Part shown: piece by piece, positions 15,816 through 43,560 of the stretch | Position numbering within the stretch: position 1 is the stretch's first letter | Layout: the number at the start of each line of letters is the position of its first letter | Source of the DNA: a virus | Lineage: Duplodnaviria; Caudoviricetes | Virus record (IMG/VR): IMGVR_UViG_3300047491_000255 | Span: 32,001-96,000 of that record | Strand: one strand, 5' to 3' | DNA length: 64,000 nt | Notes under the pieces: model-generated | Told to the model about the DNA's origin: nothing | The model's database searches: none | Seen by the model: the letters and a program-made list of their open reading frames with translations, nothing else | Made by a program: the position numbers and the translations under genes

Positions 15816-16279
15816 TGATTAGTCCTTTCTAACAATACATCCCAGACAGGAGATAGTGCAACACGATACGTTAATAATTTTACTTGTATCTCAATTGGTT
15901 GTTCTGACACTAACCCCATCGCCGTAGACCAATCAGAAGGCACTGGTCCAATATTAAGACTTGCCCATAAAGCAGAGAATTTGGAAATCATATCGGCATA
16001 TGGAATAAGCGGATCGGCCTCCACCATGGGCGCGGCAGGAACCGGGCGCGGCACGATGAGCGCGTCCGTGATCGGGTCAACGGTCGGCTGGTCAACGTCG
16101 CCCTCGATGAGGTACTCGTACCATCCCTCGGCCTGCCGCTCCGCCACCGGTTGCCTCGCCATGAATGCGGAGAAGTTCCCGCGCACCAACCCACCATACT
16201 CGCATTGATTCTCCGGTATGCTGGCCGAGTCCGTGATTGTCCCGTCTGCGTTCAGTCTGTACATTATTGAGTCCTCCAT
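15812..16279 (-). CDS. Fibre-associated/chaperone-like hypothetical protein
   Basis: 155 aa directly after fibre-like genes; ERQAEGWY motif. Confidence 0.55.
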   Translation of the reverse strand: MEDSIMYRLNADGTITDSASIPENQCEYGGLVRGNFSAFMARQPVAERQAEGWYEYLIEGDVDQPTVDPITDALIVPRPVPAAPMVEADPLIPYADMISKFSALWASLNIGPVPSDWSTAMGLVSEQPIEIQVKLLTYRVALSPVWDVLLERTNQ

Positions 16280-17326
16280 TTACTTCCAGTTCGCACTCAT
16301 CGTGGCGTATCCCGGCACGTTCGTTGATGAGGCAAACGTATTGATATCATTCGTTGGCGTCAGCACAGTATGGATCACATTCGTGCCCCAAAAAACCTGA
16401 CCGCCCCACAGTGGCATGTTTCTCCATGCACTGTCCAACGATCCAACGATGTTTCCGCCAGTCATTGAGATGTTCGTGGGAATCTGGAAATCTCCTGACG
16501 TTATTTTTGCCATTCCGTTGCAGGCGTAGTAGTACGCACCCACCGCTAGCGGTCCGGTCATATTGATGGCGCTCAAAAATCCGTCAGGCAGTGGGCCGGT
16601 CACGTTGGACATATTGTTGCAGGCGTTGTTAAACATGTTCGCCGCTGTCGGCCCGGTTAGCCTCGACGTGTCCATAAATCCGGCGGGCAGTGGGCCTGTC
16701 ACGTTTACCATGCCGTAGCAGGTGTAAGCTAACATGCCTGACCCTGGTGGCCCGGTTAGTGCCGAAGTATCCATGAATCCGTCAGGCAGTGGCCCGACCA
16801 AGCCAGACATGTTGATGAAGGATGCTAAAAACATACCTGCCGTCGGCGTTCCGGTAATTTTCCGAAACGGATTTGTCCGCATAGCAGTAACCCGCGGGTT
16901 GCTGGAAAAAATCGCTCTGTACGCATTCACCGCCGTAGCCGCGTAGTCGAGAGTCCCCGAAAACTCGCATGTGTAGGTCGGACTCGTGAGCGAGGTGTGG
17001 AACATGTTTTGATATGCACCGCTTGCATTTCTCCAGTCGCCACGGAACTTGATGTAACGCCCGCGCATCGTAATCGTGTTGCTCGTGTACGCCGTCCACA
17101 CGCCATTGCCCGCGTCGTATAGAGCCTGCGACGGTGTGGCCGGTCCCGCGTATGCCTCGCCGACGCCCAGCGAGAGCGTCGTTGGCGGAGTACCGGAAAC
17201 AAAGGTGATTGTGAAATGGGTGTCGCCACCCAGCTTCCCAAGCGGGTCAATCCTGCTCGGGATCCCCGCCCAGACCGCCGCCGCCGCCAGCGACATCGCG
17301 CAAAGTGTCAGTGTGAGTGTTCTCAT
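16280..17326 (-). CDS. Repeat-containing adhesin-like protein with signal-peptide-like N-terminus
   Basis: Start re-set to MRTLTLTLCAMSLAAAAVWA; three to four repeats of M.NVTGPLP.GF.DTS.LTGP (LRR-like solenoid). Confidence 0.7.
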   Translation of the reverse strand: MRTLTLTLCAMSLAAAAVWAGIPSRIDPLGKLGGDTHFTITFVSGTPPTTLSLGVGEAYAGPATPSQALYDAGNGVWTAYTSNTITMRGRYIKFRGDWRNASGAYQNMFHTSLTSPTYTCEFSGTLDYAATAVNAYRAIFSSNPRVTAMRTNPFRKITGTPTAGMFLASFINMSGLVGPLPDGFMDTSALTGPPGSGMLAYTCYGMVNVTGPLPAGFMDTSRLTGPTAANMFNNACNNMSNVTGPLPDGFLSAINMTGPLAVGAYYYACNGMAKITSGDFQIPTNISMTGGNIVGSLDSAWRNMPLWGGQVFWGTNVIHTVLTPTNDINTFASSTNVPGYATMSANWK

Positions 17327-17327
17327 G

Positions 17328-19733
17328 TTAGAACGAGTCCCATTGATTGCAGATGATGTTCGTCTTGCCCAAGCTGCAGATGTATGCCTGCCAATTCGCC
17401 CGCAGCAGTTGGTTAGAGCGCGTCGTCGAGACCGTCGGCGTGGACAAGTAACGCAACGTCGCATTCGTCGCCGGGTACGCGAAACTCACGTTCGTATGAG
17501 CGACCGTAATCATGGTTGACCAATCCGCTACCTGCGTGCCGATGTTGAGCCCGGACAGGTCGAAGGCCAGCACGCTGGTCAAATTGGTCACGGTCAGCCG
17601 ATAGATTCTGTTGGTCGGCACAACCGCAATCGTGTTCGTGATCCCCGCCGCCGTCGCCTGCGTGATCGTCGGCGTGTACACGCGCTCGGTCGTCGGCATG
17701 GATTCCGCCGCGCTCGCAAGCCATGCCGCAAATATCGGATCGCTCTCCCCGCTACCGCTCGCCCCGCCGCCCGCCGTCCCCAACGGCTGCCCGCGCCGGT
17801 CATAAATCCAGTACGTCCGGCCGGCCGCATCACTCCGCACCACGATGCGGGCAATGCGGATTGTCATCCCTTGCATGTAAACCGGTACGCCTGTGTTATC
17901 GTAACTGCTGGCGTCCGCGATACAGTTGGCCAGCCGAGTCGAAGCAGGACCAGCCGTGTAACTCGCGCTCGAAAGATTGAGCATCAGGCGCGTCGATTTC
18001 GGCGTGATTCCGCTCTCCACAAAGGCAAACACATTGATCGCGTGACAATCCCCGACCGACCCGAACATCGCCGCGCCGCTCGGCAGTGCCGTCAGAGCGT
18101 TCAGATTCGTGATTGCCCGGAACCCCGACGCCGAGTTGAGCACCCACATCATTGTCCGATTCGTGTTGGCTGGAATCGTGTGGCTGTGCATTTGCCAACC
18201 CACGCCATCGGTCGTCGTGAGGTAAGCGTCCGTCACGCTGGAGTTGGTCGTCGAGACAGAAGCCTGGACGCCGCTCTCCCATATCGCCGGAAGCCGTCGC
18301 ACCCGCTCCCCGATCCACGACACGCGCCCCAGCCCGCGCCGGTTCTCCACATTCTCCGTCCAGCTCCTAATCGCGTAGCCATTGCCAGCCACGATGCTGT
18401 TGGTGTCCATCAGGAAAATCTCGAACATCATTGCGCGCGCATCCGCCGCCGTGCCGCTGGTCAAGTACGGATAGCTCGTGTAATTCGTAATCGTCCCGTT
18501 CGGCAAGGCGCACACATAGTTGAGCGCAGGAGTGTTCGTAGTCCCCGCCGTCAGCCGCACCACCACGCTGGTGCCGTACTGCACAATTGATTGACCGAAC
18601 CAGTATTCAATCTGGCCGGCTGGCGACGGCGTAACGGTCGCATACGGGCCTGTTGCATCAACCGCCAGCGACAAGACCGGATCGCGCACAGACAGCCCGT
18701 TGACCAAACCGAGGAAGTTGTTGGTGGACACCTTGCCCGCCAGCGCGTCGGCCAGCCCGGTCACGCCAGCAATAGGCACGTTGGACACTCCTGCGCCTCC
18801 CCCGATAAATTGGTTGGCGTAGACAGGCAACCGCACAACCGGTCTGCCGTTCCACGTCGCACCCCATCCAGTGGCGGTCGGGTTGGTGACGTAGTTGGTA
18901 ATGCTGGGATTAGCTAAATCGAAAACATTAAGTGCTTCTGTTGGTGCGTTCCCTGAGAAGTACATTGATCCCATGTCCTGGCACTGATAGAACGCATACG
19001 TCCCAACCGAAGTGACATTAGGCATAGGGTCAAATCTTACATCCCCGCAATAGCCAAACGCATAGCCTCCAATGGTCGTGACGTTAGGGAATTTTGCATC
19101 CGCCAGCTTTATGCAGCTTTGAAATGCTTGGTCTCCAATTGTCGTAACATTGGGGAGCGCAATCCACAATAACTCAGAACACCAAGTAAATGCTCTGAAT
19201 GAGATTGACCTGATATTCCCACCACCAGTTACACGCGTGATTACAGCGTTGAGTTCAAATATATTCCCGAACCCAGTCACCGGCAACCCATCCAACATAT
19301 CAGGAATCACCACCTCATTCGGACCGGTATATCCTGTCAGCGTCACTTCCGTATCTGTCTTGGTCCACGTCCAGTTGGTTGCGCTTGATGGATTCTGCCA
19401 TGCGGTCGCAACCTTGCTCGTCTCTGCCGCCGAAACGTGCAGCGTCCCCGCGCCTTCTATGCCAGACAGCGAGCCGTGCGGGATTCCGTTCGTCGCGGCG
19501 TTAATCGCAGAGGTTATCCAGCTAGGGATTGGATTGGTAGCCTCAATCACATAATTTGTCGAGGCAAGACCATTGGTAATTGATTGAGTTACCTCAAAAT
19601 GATTAGAGACGGTTCCAATCAACACTTTTCGAGCCAATACGGTTCCAAAACTGTTCGTCACATCAGCGGCCAATACAGGCCACACAAAAGCCAATACTGA
19701 GGTTATGACCAATGCTTTAAATGAGAATCTCAT
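17328..19733 (-). CDS. Fibre/adhesin-like protein with BspA-type leucine-rich repeats
   Basis: Start MRFSFKALVITSVLAFVWPVLAA (ATGA overlap with upstream gene); repeats LPNVTTIGDQAF, FPNVTTIGGYAF, MPNVTSVGTYAF. Confidence 0.8.
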   Translation of the reverse strand: MRFSFKALVITSVLAFVWPVLAADVTNSFGTVLARKVLIGTVSNHFEVTQSITNGLASTNYVIEATNPIPSWITSAINAATNGIPHGSLSGIEGAGTLHVSAAETSKVATAWQNPSSATNWTWTKTDTEVTLTGYTGPNEVVIPDMLDGLPVTGFGNIFELNAVITRVTGGGNIRSISFRAFTWCSELLWIALPNVTTIGDQAFQSCIKLADAKFPNVTTIGGYAFGYCGDVRFDPMPNVTSVGTYAFYQCQDMGSMYFSGNAPTEALNVFDLANPSITNYVTNPTATGWGATWNGRPVVRLPVYANQFIGGGAGVSNVPIAGVTGLADALAGKVSTNNFLGLVNGLSVRDPVLSLAVDATGPYATVTPSPAGQIEYWFGQSIVQYGTSVVVRLTAGTTNTPALNYVCALPNGTITNYTSYPYLTSGTAADARAMMFEIFLMDTNSIVAGNGYAIRSWTENVENRRGLGRVSWIGERVRRLPAIWESGVQASVSTTNSSVTDAYLTTTDGVGWQMHSHTIPANTNRTMMWVLNSASGFRAITNLNALTALPSGAAMFGSVGDCHAINVFAFVESGITPKSTRLMLNLSSASYTAGPASTRLANCIADASSYDNTGVPVYMQGMTIRIARIVVRSDAAGRTYWIYDRRGQPLGTAGGGASGSGESDPIFAAWLASAAESMPTTERVYTPTITQATAAGITNTIAVVPTNRIYRLTVTNLTSVLAFDLSGLNIGTQVADWSTMITVAHTNVSFAYPATNATLRYLSTPTVSTTRSNQLLRANWQAYICSLGKTNIICNQWDSF

Positions 19734-21271: not shown

Positions 21272-22042
21272 TCAACTCCTGAAATCGCACTCGAACATCC
21301 ACTCGCCAGTCTGTGCCTCTTCCGGCTTCACAATAGCCAGCTTGGTATCCCCAACACAGAAGGCTTCCAGCGTAATCACCAACTCCGTGCCGTACTGAAG
21401 TGCCAATTCCTTTGCAGCCGCAAGAACCTGTCCCTGCGTCTCATACCTTTCTCGATACTTCGGATCACGGTCAATCGGCATATCACGATCAAAACCCCAC
21501 CGACGTTCCAAGACAAATCGTTTCTCAACAGGCCCCTTCCGTATCGGAAACTTCTCGATTGTCACCCGCTTTGCCTTCTTCGGTTCCCGAATCACTTTCT
21601 TCCGAATAACCGCTCTCAATGATCCTGATCCACCCCCATAGCCTTCCCCGTGCCCATACTCCCGCTCATCCTCTGCCAAGGCATTCTTCAGGGCTTCCTG
21701 CTCTGTCCAGCCTGTCCCACGAATTGTCCGAGTGTCCGTTCCAGACAACACCGACTTCGCCAATCTCAAAATGTCTTGGATTTCTCTCTTGGCTAGAAGA
21801 CTCTTGGCAACTTTCAGGATTTCAGATGACTCTCTTCTACGCAACCTCTTCTGAATCATACGGCGTTTCTCAACTTTATCTCGCTCTGTCTTTTGGAAAT
21901 TGTCGTCTTTTTGATGTTTCAGAGCTTTCCACTCATCATCTTCCATCAATGGGAGTCCACTCCCTGAAACTTCCAGAGCAACTCTGTCTGCAATCATATC
22001 CTCTCGACTATTCATTGCGACCATCCTTCCTCTCTCCATCAC
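21272..22042 (-). CDS. Hypothetical protein
   Basis: 256 aa with two copies of the IL..AKS.L helix. Confidence 0.7.
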   Translation of the reverse strand: MMERGRMVAMNSREDMIADRVALEVSGSGLPLMEDDEWKALKHQKDDNFQKTERDKVEKRRMIQKRLRRRESSEILKVAKSLLAKREIQDILRLAKSVLSGTDTRTIRGTGWTEQEALKNALAEDEREYGHGEGYGGGSGSLRAVIRKKVIREPKKAKRVTIEKFPIRKGPVEKRFVLERRWGFDRDMPIDRDPKYRERYETQGQVLAAAKELALQYGTELVITLEAFCVGDTKLAIVKPEEAQTGEWMFECDFRS

Positions 22043-22165
22043 TTCACTTCTCGAAGTGAAATTCCAGAATCATAACCATCGTGATTTATTAGCCCATCTG
22101 TATGAAACTCGTCGCCAACCAAAGGCGTTATTTGCCACGCCTTGCTATACGCCATCTGAACCTTC

Positions 22166-22399
22166 TTATCGTCTGATGTTGGCCGCTATGGAGTCACGCA
22201 GCGCGTTCACCTTGTCGAGCACGTCGCCGTATTCCTGTCCGGAGAACTCAGTGCGCCACATTTTCATGCCGACGACTTGACCGCCAGTGATGAGTCTCTC
22301 GCGTTTACGGGAGAATATCTTGTCGAGCGCGATTTCAAGATCGTCCAACAATGTGCCGGAGGGTACGACGGCCCCGGCGCCCGTGTTTGGTGTAGTCAT
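22166..22399 (-). CDS. Cassette-borne hypothetical protein
   Basis: MTTPNTGAG...AANIRR; ATG lies inside attC 22343-22441 and overlaps the upstream stop (ATGA). Confidence 0.65.
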   Translation of the reverse strand: MTTPNTGAGAVVPSGTLLDDLEIALDKIFSRKRERLITGGQVVGMKMWRTEFSGQEYGDVLDKVNALRDSIAANIRR

Positions 22400-22441
22400 G
22401 CGTCCTTTCCGGGGCCGTCGCCCCTCAGCACCGTGTTCGGC
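22343..22441 (+). mobile_element. attC-like recombination site
   Basis: R'' GTCCAAC ... R' GTTCGGC with internal inverted arms cgacggccccgg/ccggggccgtcg. Confidence 0.7.
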
Positions 22442-22677
22442 CTTAATACCCACCCTGCAAACCACGTATTCCGCCGCCATGACCACTCCAGCCCTATCGA
22501 CCGCATAGGCCAACCGTAATGCTGGTCGTGACCACCGTGCGTTTCGTCAACGCAGAGCAGACCGTATTTCTTGGCAATGTGCGAACCTACGCAGGCCACA
22601 CGGAAACGCCATGAGGCCGAACAAGGCTCGGGAGGGTAAGCCTCACCCGTGGTTGTCTTGCAATCGTCAGCTTTCAT
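22396..22677 (-). CDS. Cassette-borne hypothetical protein
   Basis: MKADDCKTT...LRPNTVLRGDGPGKDA; RBS GGAGG and ATG inside attC 22616-22706. Confidence 0.6.
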   Translation of the reverse strand: MKADDCKTTTGEAYPPEPCSASWRFRVACVGSHIAKKYGLLCVDETHGGHDQHYGWPMRSIGLEWSWRRNTWFAGWVLRPNTVLRGDGPGKDA

Positions 22678-22706
22678 TTCGGCTACCCTCCGCTTTGGTG
22701 TTGTAA
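22616..22706 (+). mobile_element. attC-like recombination site
   Basis: R'' GCCGAAC, arms ggagggtaagcc/ggctaccctcc, R' GTTGTAA; R'' is the exact complement of GTTCGGC that opens this cassette. Confidence 0.7.
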
Positions 22707-23079
22707 ACCGCCACTCCATCCTCAAATGACTTCAATGAGTAACGGCCTATGATACCGTTGAAGTTCCTTTACCAAAATCTTTGCATCCTTCATGTCCTTC
22801 AACCGAACCGCTACCTTTGCCGAAGTAACGAACCTTGATCCACGATACTTCCCTAAGCTGATTTCGACGGATACGACATCATGCCCTCTACCAATAAGGT
22901 CTTTTATCAGCATTTTATTTAAAGAATCACGGGCTGATTGTTCAAGACCATCCTTGTAATCTCTATCCTTCTCCCTTAAATTAGAAAAGACAGCATCGAA
23001 GATCAAATCTTCTTGCTGCCCTTTTGCGAAAAAACTGAAAGGCTACTTTCGCAGCCATGCTGTCTAATCTGTCTATCAC
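22700..23079 (-). pseudogene. Frameshifted gene interrupted at its 3' end by cassettes
   Basis: GTG at 23079 with RBS; reads VIDRLDSMAAKVA / FAKGQQEDLIFDA...QRY / GRYSLKSFEDGVAVYN across two single-base shifts. Confidence 0.5.
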
Positions 23080-26275: not shown

Positions 26276-28030
26276 CTACTTCACGGTCCACTTCTCACGA
26301 ACCTGCTCCACTGTCGGCAGAGCAACCGTTCCTCCAATGCCCTCGGCTTGAAGCATCATAGAGAAAATCTTCTCACTGAAGCCTCCAACTTGATTGACAT
26401 GATCCCCGGCATCAACCGGAGCATCGCCGTACCCGTTAAGGTGAACGAGGTGGAGCCAAGTCTCAGCCGCAGCCTTACTTGACTTCCTGTACTTCGCCCA
26501 TGCATCTGCAAACGGCTGACCACCACCATTTTGACAATCGACCCACATCTGGCAGTCTGTCAGGATGATTACCCGTGCCGGAGTCTTACCCGAATTGATC
26601 AGGTGTTCAATGCACAAATGACCATTCGTTCCACCCCCATTACCAGACTTCTTCACCTTCTCACAGACGCCCATAACGGTATTCGTCTTGGCGAAGCGAA
26701 CCTCCTTCACATTCGTTCCGAAAGAGAATAAATATGCCCTCTCGCACGCCTTGGCTGCGATTCCCGCAAGCATGTTCGCTGCATCACGACAGTCACGAGC
26801 CGACCTCTCAGACAGAGTGTTACTCGTCATTGAACCAGAGTTATCAGCAAACAGCATGGTCTCACCCGGAATAACCGGGATATTGTAACATGACTCGTTT
26901 GCGGCTAGTTCAATAGCTGCCTCGACCTCCGATAAGTCTGCAAGATCGAATTCGCCAGACATCCCATCCAGTGCCGTCTTCGCAGACAGGAACCTGAACG
27001 GCAGTTGCTTCGACTTCACAACCTCGTCCTTGTTCGAGAGCTTGTCCGACACCTTCTGAATGACATCCTTGGAAACCTTCGCCTCTATGATGTTCCGCAG
27101 GTTACGAAGAAGAGCCATGTAACCGACCAGACCATTGTTGATCAGGAACGACCACACCGCATTCTTCTCCTTGCCGAATTGAGACAGCAAGACCTCCCAA
27201 TTGACCTGTGACTTCTTCGCCAGATCACGAGCCTCATCGTCAAACACCGTCTTCTTCGCCAACTCCTTACGAGCGGCGATGATCGGAGTCTTTGCAGGGT
27301 CATCGATCTTCCCGGTGATGAAATACTTGGCAACCTCACCATTCAAAGGCCAACCAGCCTTACGAGGAAGCCAGCAAAGCACGTCCTTCCAAGTCGGGAA
27401 GCCAGTGTCGTCATACTTCATCAGTCCACGCTCACCGAACTTACCCACCGCATCAGACAGACCGGTAGCCAAACTATTCGGCAGATTCTTCAGTCCGAAC
27501 AGAAACCGATGAACCAGCAAACAGGTCTTCACCTCGTCCGGACGCTTCACGATGTACGGAGCGTACTTCCGTACCAAAGGCTTCGTGCCATCAACATGAG
27601 AGGCCAACACCAATAAGACCTGCGGGGTCAAACGGATGTTCATCTCGTTACGAAGCCAGTTGGCGATAGCCAGAATGTCCTCGGGAGTCTTACCCCGTGC
27701 AACATCCAAAGCCGTAGAAATCACCTCACGGGCAGTTTCCGGGAGCTCATCACAGGTGATAAAGCCCTTCAGCTTGCCATCCACGATCTCCAGCCTCTCG
27801 GCCAGCTTATCGAACTTGCCACCAGTCCCACGCTTCGGCACACAGACCGCAGCATTATAGAACTTCGGCTCTGCGAAAAACGAACCACCAGTCATGGTGA
27901 TGAGCTTCAACGCCGGGTCAGAGACCTCAAACGCCACTCCACCTGCCCGGTTGACCGTAACAGTCTTTGCGTTGCTCGGCAGACGTGCCGCCGCAGCCCT
28001 CTTCCTCGCTACCGTCTTGAACGTGCTCAT
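26276..28030 (-). CDS. rsr: Ro60/Rsr-like TROVE + vWA domain RNA-binding protein
   Basis: NRAGGVAF start, LRNEMNIR, RPDE, YMALLRNLRNI, SKQLPFRFLSA TROVE motifs; DNSGSM MIDAS, GGTN and ILTDCQ in vWA; AAGGAGG RBS before ATG 28030. Confidence 0.93.
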   Translation of the reverse strand: MSTFKTVARKRAAAARLPSNAKTVTVNRAGGVAFEVSDPALKLITMTGGSFFAEPKFYNAAVCVPKRGTGGKFDKLAERLEIVDGKLKGFITCDELPETAREVISTALDVARGKTPEDILAIANWLRNEMNIRLTPQVLLVLASHVDGTKPLVRKYAPYIVKRPDEVKTCLLVHRFLFGLKNLPNSLATGLSDAVGKFGERGLMKYDDTGFPTWKDVLCWLPRKAGWPLNGEVAKYFITGKIDDPAKTPIIAARKELAKKTVFDDEARDLAKKSQVNWEVLLSQFGKEKNAVWSFLINNGLVGYMALLRNLRNIIEAKVSKDVIQKVSDKLSNKDEVVKSKQLPFRFLSAKTALDGMSGEFDLADLSEVEAAIELAANESCYNIPVIPGETMLFADNSGSMTSNTLSERSARDCRDAANMLAGIAAKACERAYLFSFGTNVKEVRFAKTNTVMGVCEKVKKSGNGGGTNGHLCIEHLINSGKTPARVIILTDCQMWVDCQNGGGQPFADAWAKYRKSSKAAAETWLHLVHLNGYGDAPVDAGDHVNQVGGFSEKIFSMMLQAEGIGGTVALPTVEQVREKWTVK

Positions 28031-28127
28031 TCTTCTATCATCCTCCTTGAAGGTGACATTTCTGCCACCAATTCTGTGCCTTACGGCACCCTTATTATCA
28101 ATGTTCCACATAGAACATTGCCATCCT

Positions 28128-28167
28128 AAAAAACAAAAAACCGAACATCCTTTTATAGATGTCCGGC
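28128..28167 (-). terminator. Intrinsic terminator downstream of tRNA
   Basis: GCCGGACATCT-loop-GGATGTTCGGT followed by TTTTTGTTTTTT on - strand. Confidence 0.8.
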
Positions 28168-28173
28168 TTTGAT

Positions 28174-28250
28174 TGGTAGCGGGGGCAGGATTTGAACCTG
28201 CGACCTTCAGGTTATGAACCTGCTAAGCTACCTGGCTGCTCCACCCCGCA
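28174..28250 (-). tRNA. tRNA-Met(CAT), initiator type
   Basis: TGCGGGGTGGAGCAGCCAGGTAGCT...TTCATAA...GGTTCAAATCC...CCCGCTACCA; 1:72 mismatch, encoded CCA, close to bacterial tRNA-fMet. Confidence 0.95.
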
Positions 28251-28257
28251 ATCAAAA

Positions 28258-28353
28258 GCCGACACCGATAGACGTTTGTGGTGTTTTTTCCCATTAAAAT
28301 CTCTGATCTTGGCCGCTAAAGCGTCCATCCAACCACAAACTGAAGGCATCAAC
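28258..28353 (-). ncRNA. Candidate Y-like RNA 1 (96-nt stem-loop)
   Basis: GTTGATGCC/GGTGTCGGC stem, TTCA/GTCTATC internal loop, GTTTGTGGT/ACCACAAAC stem, 3' U run; adjacent to Ro60 gene. Confidence 0.55.
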
Positions 28354-28357
28354 CAAA

Positions 28358-28453
28358 TCTTGTGAACTAATCAAACTCCAATAGTCGCATTGAGAACGCT
28401 GTCTTTTCTATAGAAGTATCTCAACACTGAAGGAGTTTGATTAGTTCACAAGA
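28358..28453 (-). ncRNA. Candidate Y-like RNA 2 (96-nt stem-loop)
   Basis: Perfect 22-bp inverted repeat, then TTCA/GACTATT internal loop and a second stem; same loop motif as RNA 1. Confidence 0.55.
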
Positions 28454-28455
28454 AT

Positions 28456-28485
28456 ACTATACTCTCTATCTCTGAAAGTTTGCAA
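28456..28485 (-). promoter_or_regulatory. Sigma70-like promoter for the hairpin-hairpin-tRNA unit
   Basis: TTGCAA-18 bp-TATAGT with upstream A tract. Confidence 0.65.
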
Positions 28486-28509
28486 CACTTTTTTCGACTT
28501 TCAGAAAAA

Positions 28510-28917
28510 TGGTGGAGGCGAGGAGAGTCGAACTCCTGTCCGCATGACACATACTACCTAACATACACATGCTTCTTCACGATTCTTATCGACCCCGGAC
28601 TTGGTCTATCCCGTCTTTCCGAGATGTCTTTGACTATCTACCCCGGTGCGTCTCATTCCCGGTATCATCTGTCTTTGCAGATCGTCACCCACATTCTTTA
28701 ATCCTCATCCAGATGTCGTGGAGACTCTGGCGTTTTGGAGGTGTGCTGTTAAGCAGCCGCCAGCATCGGAGCAGCCGAAGCCGGACCGAAGAACCAGCGA
28801 GTCACCGATCCAACAGTTTTGCCTGTTAGTGTTTTTCAGGAAAGATTTACGAGGCCAACCTGAGTCCTCGGCATGTCATCAGGTTTCAACACCACACGTC
28901 GAATACCTTACGCCCCC
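28510..28917 (-). ncRNA. ssrA: tmRNA
   Basis: 5' GGGGGCG pairs with 3' CGCCTCC-ACCA including G3:U; T arm GGAGTTCGACTCTCC; tag frame 28823-28749 ends LAAA-stop. Confidence 0.95.
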
Positions 28918-28921
28918 ATTA

Positions 28922-28931
28922 TCAAAGAACA
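28922..28931 (-). promoter_or_regulatory. boxA-like antitermination site before tmRNA
   Basis: TGTTCTTTGA 4 nt upstream of the tmRNA 5' end. Confidence 0.6.
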
Positions 28932-29223
28932 GTCGGGCTTTCATGCACCCGATGAGAGGTTTCGGACTAAGCCTACTTCCAGCAGATTGTTACGTCACTT
29001 CTTTATACTCGGTTGGCAACCAGAACAATCAACAGTTTCGCCGACGATTACCGAGTTGAACATCGCTCCTACCTTGCAGCAGCTAGGCAACCTGCATCAT
29101 CGAGCGGAATACCGATGTCCATCTATCCACTCGTCATCATTACATTACCAGATTCCTTCCAGAATACAATAAAAAATTTTTGGTGACCTCTCCCTCCCGT
29201 CAAGCAGTACCAGAAGCATCTGG

Positions 29224-29421
29224 CTACTTTAGCCCTAAGTTGGGTGTATCGTCGTCCGCAAAGAAAACGTCATGGCATTCCCACGCTGGAGGCCCGCAGT
29301 GGTAGCAGTTGGTTTTAGGATCGTCTGGGTCTTGGTTCCTGTCGGAACACGTCTTGCATGGGTCAGGAACACCCAGCAAGGCGTCCGATGCTACCTTCAT
29401 CTGCTCGATTCGCTCACTCAT
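29224..29421 (-). CDS. Cassette-borne Cys-rich hypothetical protein
   Basis: CKTC...CYHC; starts in attC 29371-29447. Confidence 0.6.
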   Translation of the reverse strand: MSERIEQMKVASDALLGVPDPCKTCSDRNQDPDDPKTNCYHCGPPAWECHDVFFADDDTPNLGLK

Positions 29422-29447
29422 TTCGGAGCCTCAACCTTGTGTTCTGT
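29371..29447 (+). mobile_element. attC-like site A (degenerate R'')
   Basis: ACCCAGC ... agcctcaac ... GTTCTGT; near copy of site D core. Confidence 0.6.
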
Positions 29448-29635
29448 ATGTACTCTTCGAGATACGCTTGGCAGATTCGACGCATTTCCATCCAAGACTG
29501 GCGGCCTGCCTTGCGACCGTACATGAGCCGTAGTTGCACGTTCGGAGGCGCGGCCAAGAACATGCGTTGATATGGGTGCAGAACCATTTGCTCCTCCGTA
29601 TGCCGGGGAGTGGCAGGCGTTTCAGGTGCGGTCAT
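29414..29635 (-). CDS. Cassette-borne hypothetical protein
   Basis: MTAPETPA...EYIQNTRLRLRNE; GAGGAG RBS inside attC B. Confidence 0.55.
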   Translation of the reverse strand: MTAPETPATPRHTEEQMVLHPYQRMFLAAPPNVQLRLMYGRKAGRQSWMEMRRICQAYLEEYIQNTRLRLRNE

Positions 29636-29680
29636 TTCGGTTCTCCTCGCTCCCCGGAAACGGAGAGCACGGTGTTCGGC
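29578..29680 (+). mobile_element. attC-like site B
   Basis: GCAGAAC; gctc(c)tccgt/acggagagc with extra C; ccggggag/ctccccgg; GTTCGGC. Confidence 0.8.
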
Positions 29681-29685
29681 GCTAC

Positions 29686-29871
29686 TCATTTCGGCATCAC
29701 TCGCAATTCGGACCACAGTGCGTCCCAATAGGTCGCCTTCGGTCCGCTGGTGAACTTGTTGAACGCCCTCGCCTCTAAATAGGGCTGCATGAGCAACAAC
29801 AGCGACGGCCCGACAACCAGCAGCGCAAGCACGATGAATACAAAACTTATCTTCACATCTTCCTTGTTCAT
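29686..29871 (-). CDS. Cassette-borne small membrane protein
   Basis: 61 aa with long hydrophobic helix; AAAGG RBS. Confidence 0.65.
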   Translation of the reverse strand: MNKEDVKISFVFIVLALLVVGPSLLLLMQPYLEARAFNKFTSGPKATYWDALWSELRVMPK

Positions 29872-29894
29872 CGTCGTTTCCTTTCAAAGCGGAG

Positions 29895-29952
29895 CGCCAA
29901 CAAGGCGCTCCAGTTGACTCACTTCGCTTGCAACTGAGTTTTGTCGTTCGGC
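29895..29952 (+). mobile_element. attC-like site C
   Basis: CGCCAAC; gctc(c)agttg/caactgagt with extra C; GTTCGGC; 58 bp. Confidence 0.85.
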
Positions 29953-30146
29953 GTCACGAGTACTTGCGTGACCTTGCCACGTCCTTCCGCCTCGGCACGC
30001 TTGTAGTGGTCTGGCGAGCACATGCGGACGACCAACTCAGACGGGTACAGGTGGCGATATTCGCTTTTCTCGGCGTCCCACCACGCCCACAGAACCGCCG
30101 AACCAGGCGTTTGAGGGCTACCTTCATTCTTCGCTTCGCTCGTCAT
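29919..30146 (-). CDS. Cassette-borne hypothetical protein
   Basis: 75 aa; starts in attC D, stops in attC C. Confidence 0.65.
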   Translation of the reverse strand: MTSEAKNEGSPQTPGSAVLWAWWDAEKSEYRHLYPSELVVRMCSPDHYKRAEAEGRGKVTQVLVTPNDKTQLQAK

Positions 30147-30173
30147 TTCGGAGCCTCAACTCTCTCGTAGGGC
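30097..30173 (+). mobile_element. attC-like site D (R' GTA variant)
   Basis: GCCGAAC; gtttgagggct/agcctcaac; GTAGGGC. Confidence 0.75.
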
Positions 30174-30430
30174 GAAACCACGACGCGCTCAGTACGCTCG
30201 ATGATCCGATGCCGATACGTTTCGCCATGTCCGCGATTTGTTTCACATTCATGTCTCAGTTTGTGAATAGCTTCTTGCAGCGCCTTGCACTCTGGGATGT
30301 CCGGGTCGGCATACCATCCATCGCGGCAGTCGGGTCTTGCCTCTTGGACGACGAATCGCCGAACCAAGCGGTCCAGCGGATGAGCGCCAACGGCGTCATT
30401 CGCAAATGGTGGCTTTGTGGTGGCGCTCAT
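30143..30430 (-). CDS. Cassette-borne hypothetical protein
   Basis: 95 aa; ATGA overlaps at both ends, each inside an attC. Confidence 0.65.
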   Translation of the reverse strand: MSATTKPPFANDAVGAHPLDRLVRRFVVQEARPDCRDGWYADPDIPECKALQEAIHKLRHECETNRGHGETYRHRIIERTERVVVSPYERVEAPK

Positions 30431-30451
30431 CGCTGACCTTTCTCGTTCGGC
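30358..30451 (+). mobile_element. attC-like site E
   Basis: GCCGAAC; ggtc(c)agcg(g)atgagcgcca/tggcgctcatcgctgacc with two extrahelical bases; GTTCGGC. Confidence 0.88.
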
Positions 30452-30651
30452 AACTCAATGCACGCGCCTATGGCGTTCCCGCCTGGTGTCGGAAACGTGT
30501 CGCCGCAAAACCACTTCCACCCGTCTCGGATTCGCGTCCAGTGCCCACCGTTGAAGGCGTGCGCTTTGGTGCCAATCGGGTAGTCGTTCCAGTCACGATC
30601 CTTCCACAGTCTGGCCGAACCAGACGGTTGAAAAAATTCACTACCGCTCAA
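30427..30651 (-). CDS. Cassette-borne Trp-rich hypothetical protein
   Basis: 74 aa; AGGAGGT RBS; carries GCCGAAC (30614-30620) complementary to the cassette start. Confidence 0.65.
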   Translation of the reverse strand: MSGSEFFQPSGSARLWKDRDWNDYPIGTKAHAFNGGHWTRIRDGWKWFCGDTFPTPGGNAIGACIELPNEKGQR

Positions 30652-30672
30652 TGCTTACCTCCTTGTTCTCAA

Positions 30673-30891
30673 TCATAGCCACAGCCGCACCGCCTTTCCG
30701 TGTCTCGGATGCTGTTCATTGACTCGCACAGTTTCAACGGTTGTCTCGAATACGTTTGGCACGCCGCAGGTCATATTCGAGTCTTGATCTGGCAATGTGC
30801 TACCAGTACAGGTCACTTCGATGTTCCCGTGTTCTTTGCGGACGCGCCGCAGTTCTTCGATCAGTTGGTCAATCTTCATGCTGTCCTCCAT
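30673..30891 (-). CDS. Hypothetical protein
   Basis: MKIDQLIEELRRVRKEHGNIEV, a common small phage protein pattern. Confidence 0.65.
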   Translation of the reverse strand: MEDSMKIDQLIEELRRVRKEHGNIEVTCTGSTLPDQDSNMTCGVPNVFETTVETVRVNEQHPRHGKAVRLWL

Positions 30892-30909
30892 TTGTTGCGA
30901 ACAACCGCG

Positions 30910-31242
30910 TCACTCTTCCACCTGGTACATCGTCTTCCCGTTGCTTTGCATGCGCATTTCAACGACCCCCGCGCCCATTACCGCGATGTACTCGCGGCCG
31001 GTGTCCACGTCGCGCAGCACAAGGATGTCGCGGCTATGCCCTTCAGCGTCGTTGATGACCTGAGCAGACGTGACGTTGAACCTTCCGCTCTGCTCGGCCT
31101 TCAGCTTCTCGTTGCTCACTGGCGTCGGGTCGGAACACCCGGCCAACAAGGCGCTGGTAACTACGGCGATAGTACACCCGGTAAACAAGGCGCTGGTAAC
31201 TACGGCGATAGTACACCCAGCAAACGTGATTCTCCTGTTCAT
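30910..31242 (-). CDS. Putative lipoprotein in cassette array
   Basis: Signal with LLAGC lipobox; 13-aa duplication in the signal region. Confidence 0.65.
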   Translation of the reverse strand: MNRRITFAGCTIAVVTSALFTGCTIAVVTSALLAGCSDPTPVSNEKLKAEQSGRFNVTSAQVINDAEGHSRDILVLRDVDTGREYIAVMGAGVVEMRMQSNGKTMYQVEE

Positions 31243-31290
31243 GCGTTCCTTTCTGGCGTCTGCCGCCGAGTTTCAGCTTTGTCGTTACAG
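31141..31290 (+). mobile_element. attC-like site with internal 39-bp duplication
   Basis: GGCCAAC; gctggtaactacggcg/cgccgagtttcagc; GTTACAG. Confidence 0.65.
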
Positions 31291-31374
31291 ATCGAGCCTT
31301 CCGTCCGCTTGTTAGCGGGGTCATAGTGGAAAACCTAGCGTACAGACCTTTCGGCCACTCCCGCAGGTAAATCA

Positions 31375-31925
31375 AATGACTGTCTCTCCAGCCTGTCACC
31401 GATCTCCTTTATCTCGACTGGCTACCTTACAGTGCTACGGTCGCCGTCACCAGTCAAAGTCCGATTTCCACAGACGCCCTTTCAGGTCGAACACGACTGA
31501 CGGAATACCTTTTCAGTCTTTGGGAGCTTTTCATTCCCGTTTCCGTCATCGGGTTCGGGACAATCGATTTCCCCTCTAGGGAAATCGACTACCTCCCCAC
31601 CATCCAATCATCGGGATTCTCTGCTATATTCGTTTTAGGTTCGTATTGATAAAGACCAGCATATCCTTCCCGATTTCGTGAGCCATTAGCGACCTCTTCT
31701 ACCTAACTAATCTCAGGAAGGGATCATCTCCCCCCTGATTTAGCTTCGACCTGCTCACAGGCGGGCTTGGAACCGCCTTGCCGCATTACTGGCCCGACAT
31801 TGCCTCTTCCGGGTGTTACTCCGGACGTACAGTCGGCCAGTCCTCTGCGATTACTGACAACCAATAAGGTGTCAGTCACCTCAAGATTAAAAACTGGCAG
31901 GACGGATTCTCGCCGTCGCACTTGT
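31375..31925 (-). ncRNA. Unclassified structured RNA region (one or more RNAs)
   Basis: No credible ORF; series of stems, e.g. TAATCTTGAGG/CCTGAGATTA, ATCGGGA/TCCCGAT, TCGATTTCCC/GGGAAATCGA, TGACGGAA/TTCCGTCA. Confidence 0.55.
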
Positions 31926-32054
31926 CTCCCTCATCCTCATCCGCCTCCAAAAAACAGCCTTTTATTTGAGAAGCCATTAACTTAGAGGTCTTACTGATGT
32001 TTTTTGAGATCATCGACTCTTTTTTTATTTTGCCCAAGAGGACGAACCTCCATG

Positions 32055-32346
32055 TTTACTATTGCACCCGACAAGAGGCATCGTTAGCCTTGCCCAAATT
32101 TCCCCCCGCTTCACCACCCTTGTTCCCTACGACTTGCGCCCGGATTGCTCCGTGTCACAGTCTCGGAGGGGGTGTGGCAGCCATTCAGGTTCCTTCGAGA
32201 CCCTGTAGCCTTTTACTACCCTTGCCTGTGTGTGCCGCCTGTTTTCAGACGGCTGACCGTGTTTCGGAATTACCCTACTTTGCGGATTTTTAGCGCATTG
32301 GGACTTCATGCGCAGACACGTTAAATGCCGTGTCACTACCAGTAAA
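32055..32346 (-). ncRNA. Unclassified ~290-nt structured RNA
   Basis: Starts just after boxA; ends pair (TTTACTG/TAGTAAA); hairpins GACACG/CGTGTC, GCGCAT/ATGCGC, GCCGTCTG/CAGGCGGC. Confidence 0.6.
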
Positions 32347-32352
32347 AATCAG

Positions 32353-32365
32353 TTTTCAAAGAGCA
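32353..32365 (-). promoter_or_regulatory. boxA-like site
   Basis: TGCTCTTTGAAAA. Confidence 0.7.
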
Positions 32366-32458
32366 TCGAGCGTCTCGGGTCCAATTTCATAACCCGACTT
32401 GAGCCGCTTCTCAGTCCAATCGGTTTCCCGATCTTAGCTCCACGGCTGATACTCGAAA

Positions 32459-32796
32459 GGACTTTGTGATGGCGTGCTGTTACGCCAAAGAATCCACCAT
32501 GCGGTTGAGTATGGCCTACGTCAAAATCGCGGTCCGCACGAACATTTTTGACGCCGGGAGCCGCAACCTCCTTCGCCACACAACAGGGCAGTACACTCTA
32601 CCGCACCCCCGATGGCTCCGGCATGATCTTTCGATCTTCCGTCTCTTCGAGATGCAAGACATCCGGTTCCGTCCGGCCTACCCAATCCCCGTTGCGCCAC
32701 TCCGAATAGCCGCTATTCCAACGGCACTCACGTAGTGATTCTCAGCGATGCACTCATTAAGGTGGCTGCCTCTAAGCCCACCACCATCACTAGTCC
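32459..32796 (-). ncRNA. 338-nt RNA mimicking 23S rRNA H42-H44 (uL11-binding GTPase-associated centre)
   Basis: GGTGGGCTTAGAGGCAGCCACC (H43-like) near 5' end; GCGTAACAGC (H44-like) near 3' end; closed by GTGATGG/CCATCAC and GGACT/AGTCC. Confidence 0.8.
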
Positions 32797-32799
32797 AAA

Positions 32800-32812
32800 T
32801 TGTCAAAGAACA
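32800..32812 (-). promoter_or_regulatory. boxA-like site
   Basis: TGTTCTTTGACAA, 3 nt before the 338-nt RNA. Confidence 0.7.
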
Positions 32813-32813
32813 T

Positions 32814-33019
32814 GTGAAGCCACGATCCATACCGTCCCAGGTTCGGGCTGACCCTACTACTGACTGGAATTGAACCAGCTTTGTCGCCTCACACTCAGAT
32901 TCTCTATTGAGGATTCTGGATGGCCGCTAAACCCTTCTCCATCGCCTCACTCTCCTGTCTTGTTGACCGCTAAGCCAATGACTCGGTTTGCTATGGCAAC
33001 GCCAAAATCCTCAGTAGAA
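32814..33019 (-). ncRNA. Stem-loop RNA plus permuted tRNA-like domain
   Basis: TACTGAGGATTTTGG/CCAGAATCCTCAATA stem (about 32900-33019), then GTGAGGC/GCTTCAC stem enclosing T arm GCTGGTTCAATTCCAGT. Confidence 0.5.
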
Positions 33020-33037
33020 CATCCTCACATCCATACA

Positions 33038-33505
33038 TTACCGATTCTTTTTCAGAATACGGGAAAAAAATGTTTTTTTCTTTTGAGTCTCTTCGACGTT
33101 CTCGTCGATGGTGACGACATTGTCCGGTCCCCGTTCAGACTCCACAGTAGGCTCAATCTCTAGGTCTGCCGCCTTCACACCATCTTCGATCTTGTCTGGA
33201 GCTGTGCCCTTCGGCTTCGATCCTGCGATATTCAAAATCAGCTCTCCAAGCTTTGTATCGATCACACGACCCGGAACGATCTCCTCGCCATCCTGACGCC
33301 GCTTCTCCGTGTCTATCTTATGAGCTTCGATCTGATGCCTGTAAGACCAATTACGAACCCCTTCCTTCCATTCCCCATCAATCAGGACATCCAGACGATA
33401 CCTCTTATCAGGATTGTTTCTCTGAATGTTTCGCTTCTTCCGAATCGCATTGGCACGAGCTTGCTTTTTCTGCCACCTCTTACGCTCTACTCTTGTCTGA
33501 CCCAT
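33038..33505 (-). CDS. Hypothetical basic protein
   Basis: 155 aa, AGGAGG RBS, upstream TATAAT. Confidence 0.7.
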   Translation of the reverse strand: MGQTRVERKRWQKKQARANAIRKKRNIQRNNPDKRYRLDVLIDGEWKEGVRNWSYRHQIEAHKIDTEKRRQDGEEIVPGRVIDTKLGELILNIAGSKPKGTAPDKIEDGVKAADLEIEPTVESERGPDNVVTIDENVEETQKKKTFFSRILKKNR

Positions 33506-41750: not shown

Positions 41751-42041
41751 TTGATTGTTCTCCATCTGACCAATGGTTAATACGCACATCCAGCACATCC
41801 GAATACAAGCCCATGATAGCCTCTTGGCGTCGCAACCTTCTCCGCCACTACACTCGCTTTATATGGTTTCACATCTGATCCTTTCTAATCTCTATTATAC
41901 GCCCGGAAACGGATTCTTATCCGCAAACAGCTAATATCTCTTATCGAGTACGATTTTCAGCTTTATCTATGAAACATTTGCTGCCTTCCCGATATTCTGC
42001 TCTTCTATCCAGTCTTGAACCGCCTGATATACACCCTTCTC

Positions 42042-42080
42042 AAAAAGAAAAGCCTCGGGAGTTCATCACTCCCGAGGCTT
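42042..42080 (-). terminator. Intrinsic terminator after major capsid gene
   Basis: AAGCCTCGGGAGT-loop-ACTCCCGAGGCTT then TTCTTTTT. Confidence 0.85.
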
Positions 42081-42105
42081 CCTTGCTTTCTATCGAACCG
42101 CGTGG

Positions 42106-42966
42106 TTAGACGCGAGTGATGGAAAGTACTTGGAGTGCAAAGGGATTATACGCCCCAATGCCTATTTGCTCGAAGATCGAGAATCCGATCAGACGGTTCT
42201 TAGGATCGTCGGCGGACAGGACCGTCAACTCCGTGCGAACCGGGATACGACCGAAGAACTCTGCTTCGCCGCACACGTAGACCGTACCTTCCGGCACGAT
42301 ACGTGACACGATGAGCTTTGCTCCCCAGAGCGTCGCCATCAGACCCGTCTTCAACAGAATCGCCTGAGTCTCGATGTCCAGCGTGTCCCGATCCCACTTA
42401 CGCAGGTCGGCATAGTCCTTGGCATTCAGGAACACGGTAGCGACACGAATGTCGGTACGCTCCACGTTTGCGAAGGCGTCAGCCAATGCGTTTGCGGTCA
42501 GGTTGCCAGTCACCGGAATGACAGGATTCGGATTCGTCGGGTCAGCAGCCAGAGCGTCCATGACTGCGAAAACCTTGCGGTCCTCCTCAGCCTGAATCTC
42601 CGCCTTACCCAAGTCAACCGAACGTTCGATCAGGTCGAACCGACGTTGCTTGATCTCCGTGAGCTGGATTTCCGGGTTCGAGGCGATCTCGAACAGAGGG
42701 AACAGCACACGCTTCGGCTTTGCAACCGCCACGATGTTTTCGCCCTCTTCGCCAACGACGTATGCCGTGACGTTCGGGTCCTTGTCGTAGATCGGCAGTG
42801 CGCCATCGGGGAGAGCTTCCACGAAGAACCCCTTACGACCAACCGACATGTAGTCTCTCCGGCGACGGAGAGGCTGGATCATGCTCGCTGCCAAACGCTG
42901 ACGCCCTGCGGCGGTGCGAATGTACTGAGAGATGATGTCTTGCTTCATTTGATTGTCTACAGCCAT
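42106..42966 (-). CDS. Major capsid protein (HK97-like fold)
   Basis: 286 aa, strongly biased codons, AGGAGG RBS, AEEDRKVF spine helix, LWGAKLIVSRIVPEGTVYV; follows scaffold and decoration genes. Confidence 0.88.
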   Translation of the reverse strand: MAVDNQMKQDIISQYIRTAAGRQRLAASMIQPLRRRRDYMSVGRKGFFVEALPDGALPIYDKDPNVTAYVVGEEGENIVAVAKPKRVLFPLFEIASNPEIQLTEIKQRRFDLIERSVDLGKAEIQAEEDRKVFAVMDALAADPTNPNPVIPVTGNLTANALADAFANVERTDIRVATVFLNAKDYADLRKWDRDTLDIETQAILLKTGLMATLWGAKLIVSRIVPEGTVYVCGEAEFFGRIPVRTELTVLSADDPKNRLIGFSIFEQIGIGAYNPFALQVLSITRV

Positions 42967-42979
42967 GGTGATATCCTCC

Positions 42980-43474
42980 TTATAGCCTCATGTCCAATCC
43001 CAAGGTAGGGCTTGAGGTTGATGGGGCCTTGGTGACTACCCCGATCAACACAGACGACGCCGTGGTTTCCTTCGTCAGGAAGCCCTGGGCCGAACCGTAC
43101 AGGAGATCGCCAACAGCATAAACCAAGTCTGCGTTTGCGGCCGCATTCCTAGTCTCATACACGTCGACTTCCACCGATGCATGAGCCTTCATAACGGCTA
43201 CTTTACCACTAGCTACCGCCGGGCTGTTCTCGAACGCTGCGCCCGCAGCGTCATTGACGAACAATCCAACAGGTTGCAGAGCGGTCGTCATCGGAACAAC
43301 TGTGTAATCCAGTCCAGCGCTGACCGCTGCAACAGAACCACCCAATACGCCCCGAGGAGTATTGACACTCAACGTCGTATTCGTGTTCACGCCGTAGTTG
43401 CTTTTGGTAAAGCAAGCGTCCGACAGAACAGGAATAGAGTTAAGTTGCCCACGAATTAGGATAGTCAGTGACAT
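42980..43474 (-). CDS. Capsid decoration/cement protein
   Basis: Ala/Val/Gly-rich, YAVGDLLY...G.LT...IGVVTKAP pattern, directly upstream of capsid gene. Confidence 0.7.
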   Translation of the reverse strand: MSLTILIRGQLNSIPVLSDACFTKSNYGVNTNTTLSVNTPRGVLGGSVAAVSAGLDYTVVPMTTALQPVGLFVNDAAGAAFENSPAVASGKVAVMKAHASVEVDVYETRNAAANADLVYAVGDLLYGSAQGFLTKETTASSVLIGVVTKAPSTSSPTLGLDMRL

Positions 43475-43560
43475 TCTTAATTCCCTCTTTCCTTTTTTGA
43501 TTCAACAAACGGCTATTACTTGTTTCAAACTCACGCCCCGTGAGGGGCGTGAGGCATTCA

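Follow-up and report, generated by a model that had tools for sequence, protein, structure and literature searches.

A probable integron cassette cluster without integrase in a large virus, with small bottom-strand genes that run across the recombination points

In the usual picture of an integron cassette, a promoterless gene is followed by a recombination site, attC, and the gene lies wholly inside the cassette on the top strand. On the bottom strand an attC site carries an R' box, 5'-RYYYAAC-3', cut between A and C, and an R'' box, GTTRRRY; the spacers measure 5-6 nt, the sites are 57-141 nt long, and the bottom strand is purine-rich and has more G:T mispairs (Nivina et al. 2016, PMC5027507). 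Facing the AAC, the other arm has extrahelical bases at position 16 in L'', most often G, and at 23/24, where a T is conserved; a stem of 6 bp separates the two (PMC5027507). Clusters of attC sites without an integrase (CALINs) occur in phages too: 17 have been reported, and IntI1 recombined five of the six phage attC sites tested (Qi et al. 2023, PMC9892861). Since such clusters have been published, one more in a phage is therefore not new in itself (PMC9892861). Here we describe an island in the virus record IMGVR_UViG_3300047491_000255 that is probably such a cluster, and whose small genes lie on the bottom strand and extend across the crossover points of its sites. The 64,000-nucleotide stretch analysed, called the window below, comprises bases 32001-96000 of this 124,818-bp record (estimated completeness ~50%), and positions refer to the window unless the record is named. 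The record is classed as a virus by its collection; because of this classification and of related virus contigs, we call it a phage.

The island (29170..31320, minus strand) differs in composition from its surroundings: GC content is ~55% at 29.2-31.3 kb and ~45% in the backbone that makes up most of the record. It contains eight contiguous minus-strand open reading frames (ORFs; 29224-31242) of 65, 73, 61, 75, 95, 74, 72 and 110 amino acids (aa). We show below the anatomy of its sites, their strand, the limits of the cassettes, the reading frame across the crossover and the exchange of protein tails. With good though not complete confidence, we interpret the island as a CALIN that was acquired as a block by a large virus, the bottom strand of the sites being the coding strand.

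The sites belong to a repeat family. An exact 18-mer occurs twice in the island (29418 and 30143), with the reading frames of the upstream genes differing between the copies. Scanning public collections for it returned one more virus contig, 40 metagenome stretches and seven genome contigs, which with the record's own three copies gave 52 rows. Seventeen loci had the 18-mer alone in common (in one case half the element) and were dropped, leaving 35 rows, 30 of them distinct. These share ~75-80 nt with sharp homology edges at AAC and GTT, and their flanks are unrelated. Indels within the family are not divisible by three, placing two reading frames over the same DNA, and the conservation is therefore not at the protein level. 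On these grounds we dropped an initial view of the repeat as a shared gene leader or as a paralogy of ORF4 and ORF6.

From 29 family members retrieved by the 18-mer we built a covariance model, R1, and the sites called here are R1 matches. In the loci searched, the model found 75 sites (72 distinct), on a single strand of each contig, including same-strand arrays of three to six sites in L033, L013, L022, L042, L035, L019 and L010. The plus strand of the window gave no R1 match, and neither did five related loci (L001, L002, L004, L005 and L006). The heptamers GCCGAAC/GTTCGGC occur six times in the 2.1 kb of the island and 31 times in the whole 124.8-kb record, an enrichment that becomes borderline after correction for all 7-mers; as sole evidence it was unconvincing and was set aside.

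Five sites, each on the minus strand and sharing one orientation, occupy 1.9 kb of the window at cassette-sized spacing. Three of them were outside the training set: site b (30358..30451; R1 match 30351-30456, 26.9 bits, E 2e-5), site d (29895..29952; match 29888-29957, 22.1 bits, E 9e-4) and the weak site a (31180..31290; match 31173-31295, 20.4 bits, E 3e-3). Sites c and e represent the consensus subtype and were training-set members. Site c (30097..30173; match 30090-30178) thus obtains its 83.2 bits by construction, and site e (29371..29447; match 29364-29452) scores 73.6 bits. Both AAC and GTT are intact in site a (R' CTGTAAC 31284-31290, R'' GTTTACC 31180-31186), site b (R' GCCGAAC 30445-30451, R'' GTTCGGC 30358-30364) and site d (R' GCCGAAC 29946-29952, R'' GTTGGCG 29895-29901). 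The boxes of site c read GCCCTAC (R') and GTTCGGC (R''), those of site e ACAGAAC and GCTGGGT. The variable loop measures 13-62 nt in the window sites and is shortest in site d, where its 13 nt hold the stop codon of ORF4. Site b is the sole window site with a strong predicted hairpin (z -4.65 and -4.0 against shuffles). A hairpin at 29889-29911, first called a terminator, turned out to be the spacer and R'' of site d.

The first-pass annotation of this DNA had counted five complete tandem sites and a sixth at 31141-31290. Four of the five were matched by R1. The fifth is a degenerate site (29578..29680, minus strand) recognized by its heptamers alone (R' GCCGAAC 29674-29680 and an R''-like GTTCTGC 29578-29584); it was missed by R1, gives no significant fold (z -0.4) and contains the ORF2 start at 29635. 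The sixth is real but weak: it corresponds to site a and overlaps a 39-nt tandem duplication (31135-31212, 95% identical) that repeats the 3' arm of site a and part of the ORF8 signal peptide. Half-sites were found as sequence, ACCCAAC on the minus strand at 29239-29245, exactly where the annotated range starts, and CGCTAAC at 31311-31317; they are the outermost AAC half-sites of the island. The distal 5 nt of the former, a terminal R' half-site, are by eye perfectly complementary to R'' of site e, and we take it, from its sequence, to be the end of the last cassette.

We then compared the family with described attC anatomy. AAC/GTT is retained in 64-68 of the 72 distinct sites, and the spacers in the R1 alignment are 6 and 5 nt long. 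The inner helices are 95.8% and 94.8% paired and two-sided changes in paired cells number 179 against 52.7 in shuffles (reached by none of 500), counts that must be read knowing that the alignment was fitted to our own structure. G-U pairs are almost absent. Along the 3' arm, one extra base at 15/16 is followed by a 6-bp stem and then, in 66 of 72 sites, by a T at 23. Site length is 51-111 nt with a median of 75, and the terminal loop is variable. In diverged copies from the same contigs, the helices are preserved by two-sided changes. These data support the conclusion that the sites are attC-like in every structural feature tested.

The same features assign the strand. The extra bases sit opposite the AAC arm, a T-G mispair is present on the minus-type (coding) strand in 35 of 72 sites, and the purine fraction of that strand exceeds 0.5 in 67 of 72. 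In the locus L030, an adjoining truncated intI has three sites on its 5' side, all on its coding strand, which is the classical geometry. The arm with the extra bases, the mispairs, the purine bias and L030 all agree that the bottom strand of the sites is the coding (minus) strand of the virus. The earlier proposal that plus is the top strand and that the ORFs lie on the bottom strand therefore holds.

The R'' of each site in a true cassette array formerly paired with bases of an R' that now stand at the far end of the cassette. We compared the distal 5 nt of R'' with the R' that comes next downstream on the bottom strand in 34 consecutive site pairs: on average 3.12 of the 5 positions match, and nine pairs match perfectly. 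Controls averaged 2.12 (R' of the same site), 1.88 (wrong direction) and 2.04 (random pairs), and none of 20000 shuffles reached the observed values. Within the window, site b to c matches at 4/5 and c to d at 5/5, while a to b gives 1/5 and d to e, which have the degenerate site between them, 0/5. The claim that each R'' complements the R' of its own cassette thus stands for the 34-pair mean, for b-c, c-d and the terminal half-site, and fails for a-b and d-e.

This directional signal bears on the best surviving alternative, although we regard that alternative as very improbable: the elements could be junction modules that shuffle genes by homologous recombination, or a repeat resembling a miniature inverted-repeat transposable element, no site-specific recombinase being involved. 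T4-type phages have promoter/stem-loop modules to which such junctions can be likened. Modules of ~75 nt with 84-90% identity do stand beside unrelated genes in different contigs, with sharp homology limits at both ends, and no integrase was found in the two virus records. But diverged members keep the fold without the sequence, for which homologous recombination has no need, and the cassette-specific complementarity of R'' and R' runs in one direction only. For the transposable element, no target-site duplications were seen by eye. The cassette array remains the preferred reading.

The genes of the island run across the boundaries of these cassettes. Several neighbours are joined by stop/start overlaps, ATGA or ATGAGTGA. 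From the upstream end of the minus strand, ORF8 (30910..31242, 110 aa) has its ribosome-binding site (RBS), start and signal-peptide codons in site a; it matches phrog_8801 (E 1.6e-6) and is predicted, from a lipobox LAGC that we read in its sequence, to be a lipoprotein. ORF7 (30673..30891, 72 aa) matches phrog_10692 over its N-terminal 24 residues only (E 1.8e-4). ORF6 (30427..30651, 74 aa) has a conserved core up to ...IELPN and takes its tail EKGQR from site b, which contains the ATGA overlap with ORF5. ORF5 (30143..30430, 95 aa) has a core that reaches from LxRLVRR, a segment that the 3' arm of site b encodes, to ...VSPY, and its tail is ERVEAPK from site c, where GAGG lies 7 nt upstream of the next ATGA overlap. 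ORF4 (29919..30146, 75 aa) has a core to ...VTPN and the tail DKTQLQAK from site d. ORF3 (29686..29871, 61 aa) has a hydrophobic N-terminal segment; it starts 24 nt past R'' of site d and its stop precedes the next R'. ORF2 (29414..29635, 73 aa) carries the tail TRLRLRNE after IQN, and ORF1 (29224..29421, 65 aa), a CxxC...CxxC zinc-ribbon-like protein, has its first 19 residues encoded by site e. Pfam and PHROGs searches with the eight ORFs gave weak matches for ORF7 and ORF8 alone, and searches of a protein atlas assigned neither ORF5 nor ORF6 to a family, every score being <0.9.

The reading frame follows the crossover. Among the 58 sites preceded on the bottom strand by 45 or more open codons, the AAC is an in-frame codon in 49; after clustering by upstream sequence the figure is 47 of 56 (binomial p 8e-15), in agreement with the proposed in-frame crossover triplet. 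Of 35 intervals between sites, 25 have their longer ORF on the bottom strand, and in the pooled minus-strand ORFs of the island GC content at the third codon position (GC3) is 0.66, against 0.57 at the first (GC1) and 0.45 at the second (GC2). The first ATG of the downstream ORF falls inside the site in 36 of 60 cases. The junction tails TPN|LGLK, IQN|TRLR, TPN|DKTQ, SPY|ERVE and LPN|EKGQ are as described in the first-pass annotation, which had also rightly placed stop, RBS and start within the sites. Its further idea, that any cassette order yields a coupled operon, applies to the subtype with an RBS and ATGA and does not extend to other sites, given the 36 of 60 with an ATG inside. In the island itself, two of the five internal junctions have no stop/start overlap, ORF4/ORF3 and ORF3/ORF2, the latter at the degenerate site.

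Homologues show where these proteins are joined. Those of ORF5 (four), ORF6 (13) and ORF4 (three) are conserved over the core up to the Pro-Asn or its variant residue, after which the tails are unrelated; N-termini vary before the residues encoded by the 3' arm. All three families examined diverge completely just past the Pro-Asn, the break at G|TT that the first-pass annotation had set as a test. A Lar restriction-alleviation domain (31.2 bits, cut-off 28.6) in a second island (record 116.4-119 kb) starts inside a site, as do Lar relatives in L020, L024 and L035. The classical layout, with the gene on the attC top strand and within the cassette, is not that of the island; this feature is typical of cassettes, not defining. 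Since L030 has classical top-strand genes beside a bottom-strand ORF (GC3 0.77), the two layouts coexist.

The arrangement that best accounts for these data is as follows. A bottom-strand cassette begins at the C of R' (5'-RYYYAA|C). Its own attC comes first and, in the main subtype, supplies a GAGG RBS, the ATG and the first 15-20 codons; the gene body follows, and the cassette ends at the next RYYYAA. With this layout, the ORF crosses the cassette boundary and YYY-AAC is read as Pro-Asn. The attC of the neighbour provides its last 5-15 codons and its stop, which in many cases overlaps the following start as ATGA. We infer that the joins were made by a host integron integrase and that the block in the phage is expressed as one coupled operon.

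A link to integrases was seen in bacterial genomes. Two metagenome-assembled genomes (MAGs) with true copies of the element, G002 (with L050) and G003 (with L051), match the integron integrase model TIGR02249 above its curated cut-off, at 368 and 372 bits; none of 14 control genomes does. G003 has eight R1 matches, on separate short contigs. The intI remnant of L030 (1123-1587), a truncated 5' part, matches the G003 integrase in its N-terminal region (85% identity over 41 aa). It lies ~390 nt from a consensus-type site and adjoins what we read as a valyl-tRNA synthetase gene (an 803-aa ORF).

Alternatively, the element could act at the RNA level, as a conserved mRNA hairpin, for translation initiation or as an operator, by which neighbouring small genes are coupled; its likeness to attC would then be convergent. 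Its place at gene starts in many contigs would suit such a device, as would the main subtype with GAGG in a helix and ATG in the loop, and site b, where a perfect stem of 11 bp encloses the start codon. The covarying pairs nearly lack G-U, though, and the loop of many diverged members lacks an ATG. An RNA device also leaves unexplained the match of R'' to an R' 200-900 nt distant, in the next site, the end of protein homology at Pro-Asn and the tie to integrase-bearing genomes, and we give it marginally less credence than homologous recombination. Last and least probable is that the sites are true attC sites whose minus-strand ORFs are partly by-products, the real genes being on the top strand or the cassettes gene-less: L030 does have two credible top-strand genes in canonical position beside its sites, the longer ORF is on the top strand in 10 of 35 inter-site intervals and on the minus strand of the ORF5 region GC1 exceeds GC3, but conservation in the homologues of ORF4, ORF5 and ORF6 extends over the entire core, the Lar domain and its relatives start inside sites, the AAC keeps its frame bias (47/56) and the other genes of the record are all on the minus strand.

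Several observations weigh against the island being a CALIN whose cassettes were joined by an integrase. In the record (~50% complete), TIGR02249 and PF00589 found no integron integrase or tyrosine recombinase, so that the intI that the first-pass annotation wanted sought in the phage gave no match there. In the MAGs, the contigs of G002 and G003 with an intact intI have no site beside it at E up to 1; the one match is weak (E 0.11), in L064. The crossover AAC of site c is mutated to TAC and the GTT of site e to GCT. Only one of five folded stretches, four of them modelled sites, beats its shuffles; sites c, d and e have a fold z of +1.5 to -1.6, which is not significant (site c, +1.2 and +1.5), and the RNAalifold consensus of close copies is weak (-3.67 kcal/mol). 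The first extra base is C, G or A and not mainly G. The rule linking R'' to the next R' fails for two of the four window pairs. Finally, the 18-mer seed skews the sample to one subtype, and the pair counts depend on an alignment fitted to our own structure. A complete 56.9-kb virus record (G001) was likewise unmatched by TIGR02249. As the record gave no integrase match, the island counts as an attC cluster without integrase and not as a complete integron.

Relatives of the virus indicate how the island arrived. Seven related virus contigs were retrieved using the Ro-like protein encoded near the island, and four of them lack the island (L001, L002/L003 and L004). In L001 and L004, the distance from the transfer-messenger RNA (tmRNA) gene to the stretch matching window 31384-31483 is ~120 nt; the equivalent gap is ~410 nt in L002/L003 and ~2.4-2.6 kb in the window. 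The island ends between 29170-29238 and between 31300-31320, base-level placing being prevented by flank divergence (~77% identity). Since these relatives lack the complete block, the difference is the whole island and not single cassettes. The comparison of cassette order that had been suggested accordingly yielded a whole-island difference in four relatives and no single-cassette change. A decaying single acquisition is more likely than ongoing shuffling in this phage. We consider the latter unlikely because only site b folds clearly better than shuffles, sites c and e have mutated core triplets and site a carries a tandem duplication of its 3' arm.

Two further islands of this type were noted. 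The second, GC-rich like the first, is at record 116415-118950 (window coordinates 84415-86950, outside the window; L069, L089), with model matches at record 117135-117224 (96 bits) and 118882-118965. It encodes the Lar restriction-alleviation protein, whose first codons are within a site, and its neighbour ends ...LPNEKVEAPK. A third, small variable island is at window 21290-22725, where 21290-22698 is unmatched in L001. This second variable island of the window has an attC-like site at 22616..22706 (minus strand; R1 match 22609-22711, 20.3 bits, E 4e-3), a further attC-like stretch at ~22340-22440, outside the R1 matches, and an isolated GGCCAAC at ~22185.

Beyond this phage, a broader reading can be put forward only tentatively, and we would sooner doubt it than accept it. 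The attC lineage may have evolved for a bottom strand that is read by ribosomes, giving a tail and stop to the preceding gene and an RBS, start and leader to the next, with AAC fixed as Asn. Reordering by the integrase would then build coupled operons and swap tails, and phages and host integrons would trade such cassettes. If so, the traded cassettes, including Lar-like anti-restriction genes, would be ready-to-express counter-defence modules.

The neighbourhood of the island has features of its own. The minus strand carries all long ORFs of the record. Searches of the record for terminase (PF03237) and sheath (PF04984) found neither; an ORF at 42106-42966 has a sub-threshold match to HK97-type capsid (17.1 bits, below the cut-off). 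Other GC-rich blocks are at 16000-19000 (0.56-0.61) and 42000-44000 (0.54-0.56) of the window. A Ro/TROVE-like gene (26276-28111), tRNA-Met (28174-28250) and a full tmRNA (28510-28917, 107 bits) are grouped at 26276-28917 in this one virus record; we read the C-terminal part of the Ro/TROVE-like protein as vWA-type. Between tRNA and tmRNA, 28344-28462 gives a sub-threshold hairpin match (MIR403 model, E 0.003) and may be a structured RNA like those beside Ro genes. The 69 nt at 29060-29128, upstream of the tmRNA, are 87% identical to L002/L003 and are preceded by what we read as a promoter-like TTGTAT...TAATGT. On the other side of the island, 31320-33030 is an ORF-poor region of ~1.7 kb that contains a twister-P5 ribozyme (31761-31849, 48.6 bits); 32378-33042 is 77% identical to L001, and the region is possibly a large non-coding RNA region. 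An Rfam search of 28000-33200 gave only tmRNA, tRNA, twister and two weak miRNA-precursor matches. In a BLAST search of 28100-33100 against GenBank phages, the tRNA was the sole match.

The island adds to known cassette carriers a virus with three small cassette islands, one of which encodes a Lar-type anti-restriction protein. Defence genes have reportedly been placed in chromosomal integrons in recent work, and the Lar-bearing island fits this. Like the phage CALINs, the cluster described here comprises multiple attC sites, all facing one way and accompanied by cassettes, in a viral genome without an intI close by (PMC9892861). Same-direction cassettes are described there as 'most typical' and boundary-spanning ORFs are not reported in the parts of that paper drawn on here, whereas the ORFs of the island lie on the bottom strand and run from site to site (PMC9892861). 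With the attC sites of sedentary chromosomal integrons the island shares the R box AAC/GTT, spacers of 5-6 nt, the L box, extrahelical bases at 16 and 23/24, the 6-bp stem, a variable terminal structure, a purine-rich bottom strand and high site similarity within a lineage (Nivina et al. 2016, PMC5027507). It differs in the first extra base, here often C or A and in classical attC G, and in its genes: classical cassettes hold a top-strand gene inside the cassette, and most of the small genes here are on the bottom strand, across the crossover point (PMC5027507).

Coding on the bottom strand across the cassette boundary is the new part. In our search of the literature, which was non-exhaustive and covered texts outside supplementary tables, we found no natural bottom-strand cassette genes that cross the crossover in frame. 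The nearest natural parallel is ORF-11 of attI1, which likewise spans the crossover; its stop codon is provided by the inserted cassette, and the following gene is translationally coupled to it (PMC8876359; work of Hanau-Bercot). ORF-11 is a single 11-codon top-strand leader in attI, whereas here whole cassette genes do so at bottom-strand attC sites (PMC8876359). Synthetic attC sites placed in coding sequence likewise carry structure and coding on the same bases (Nivina et al. 2020, PMC7439510). Those sites were designed; the present ones are natural and also hold a stop, an RBS and a start (PMC7439510). A widespread attC lineage here carries genes on the other strand that begin in one site and end in the next, with the crossover triplet as an in-frame codon. 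If this layout is selected and not incidental, site-specific recombination would shuffle coding segments and translation signals together, a natural counterpart to the synthetic attC sites in coding sequence.

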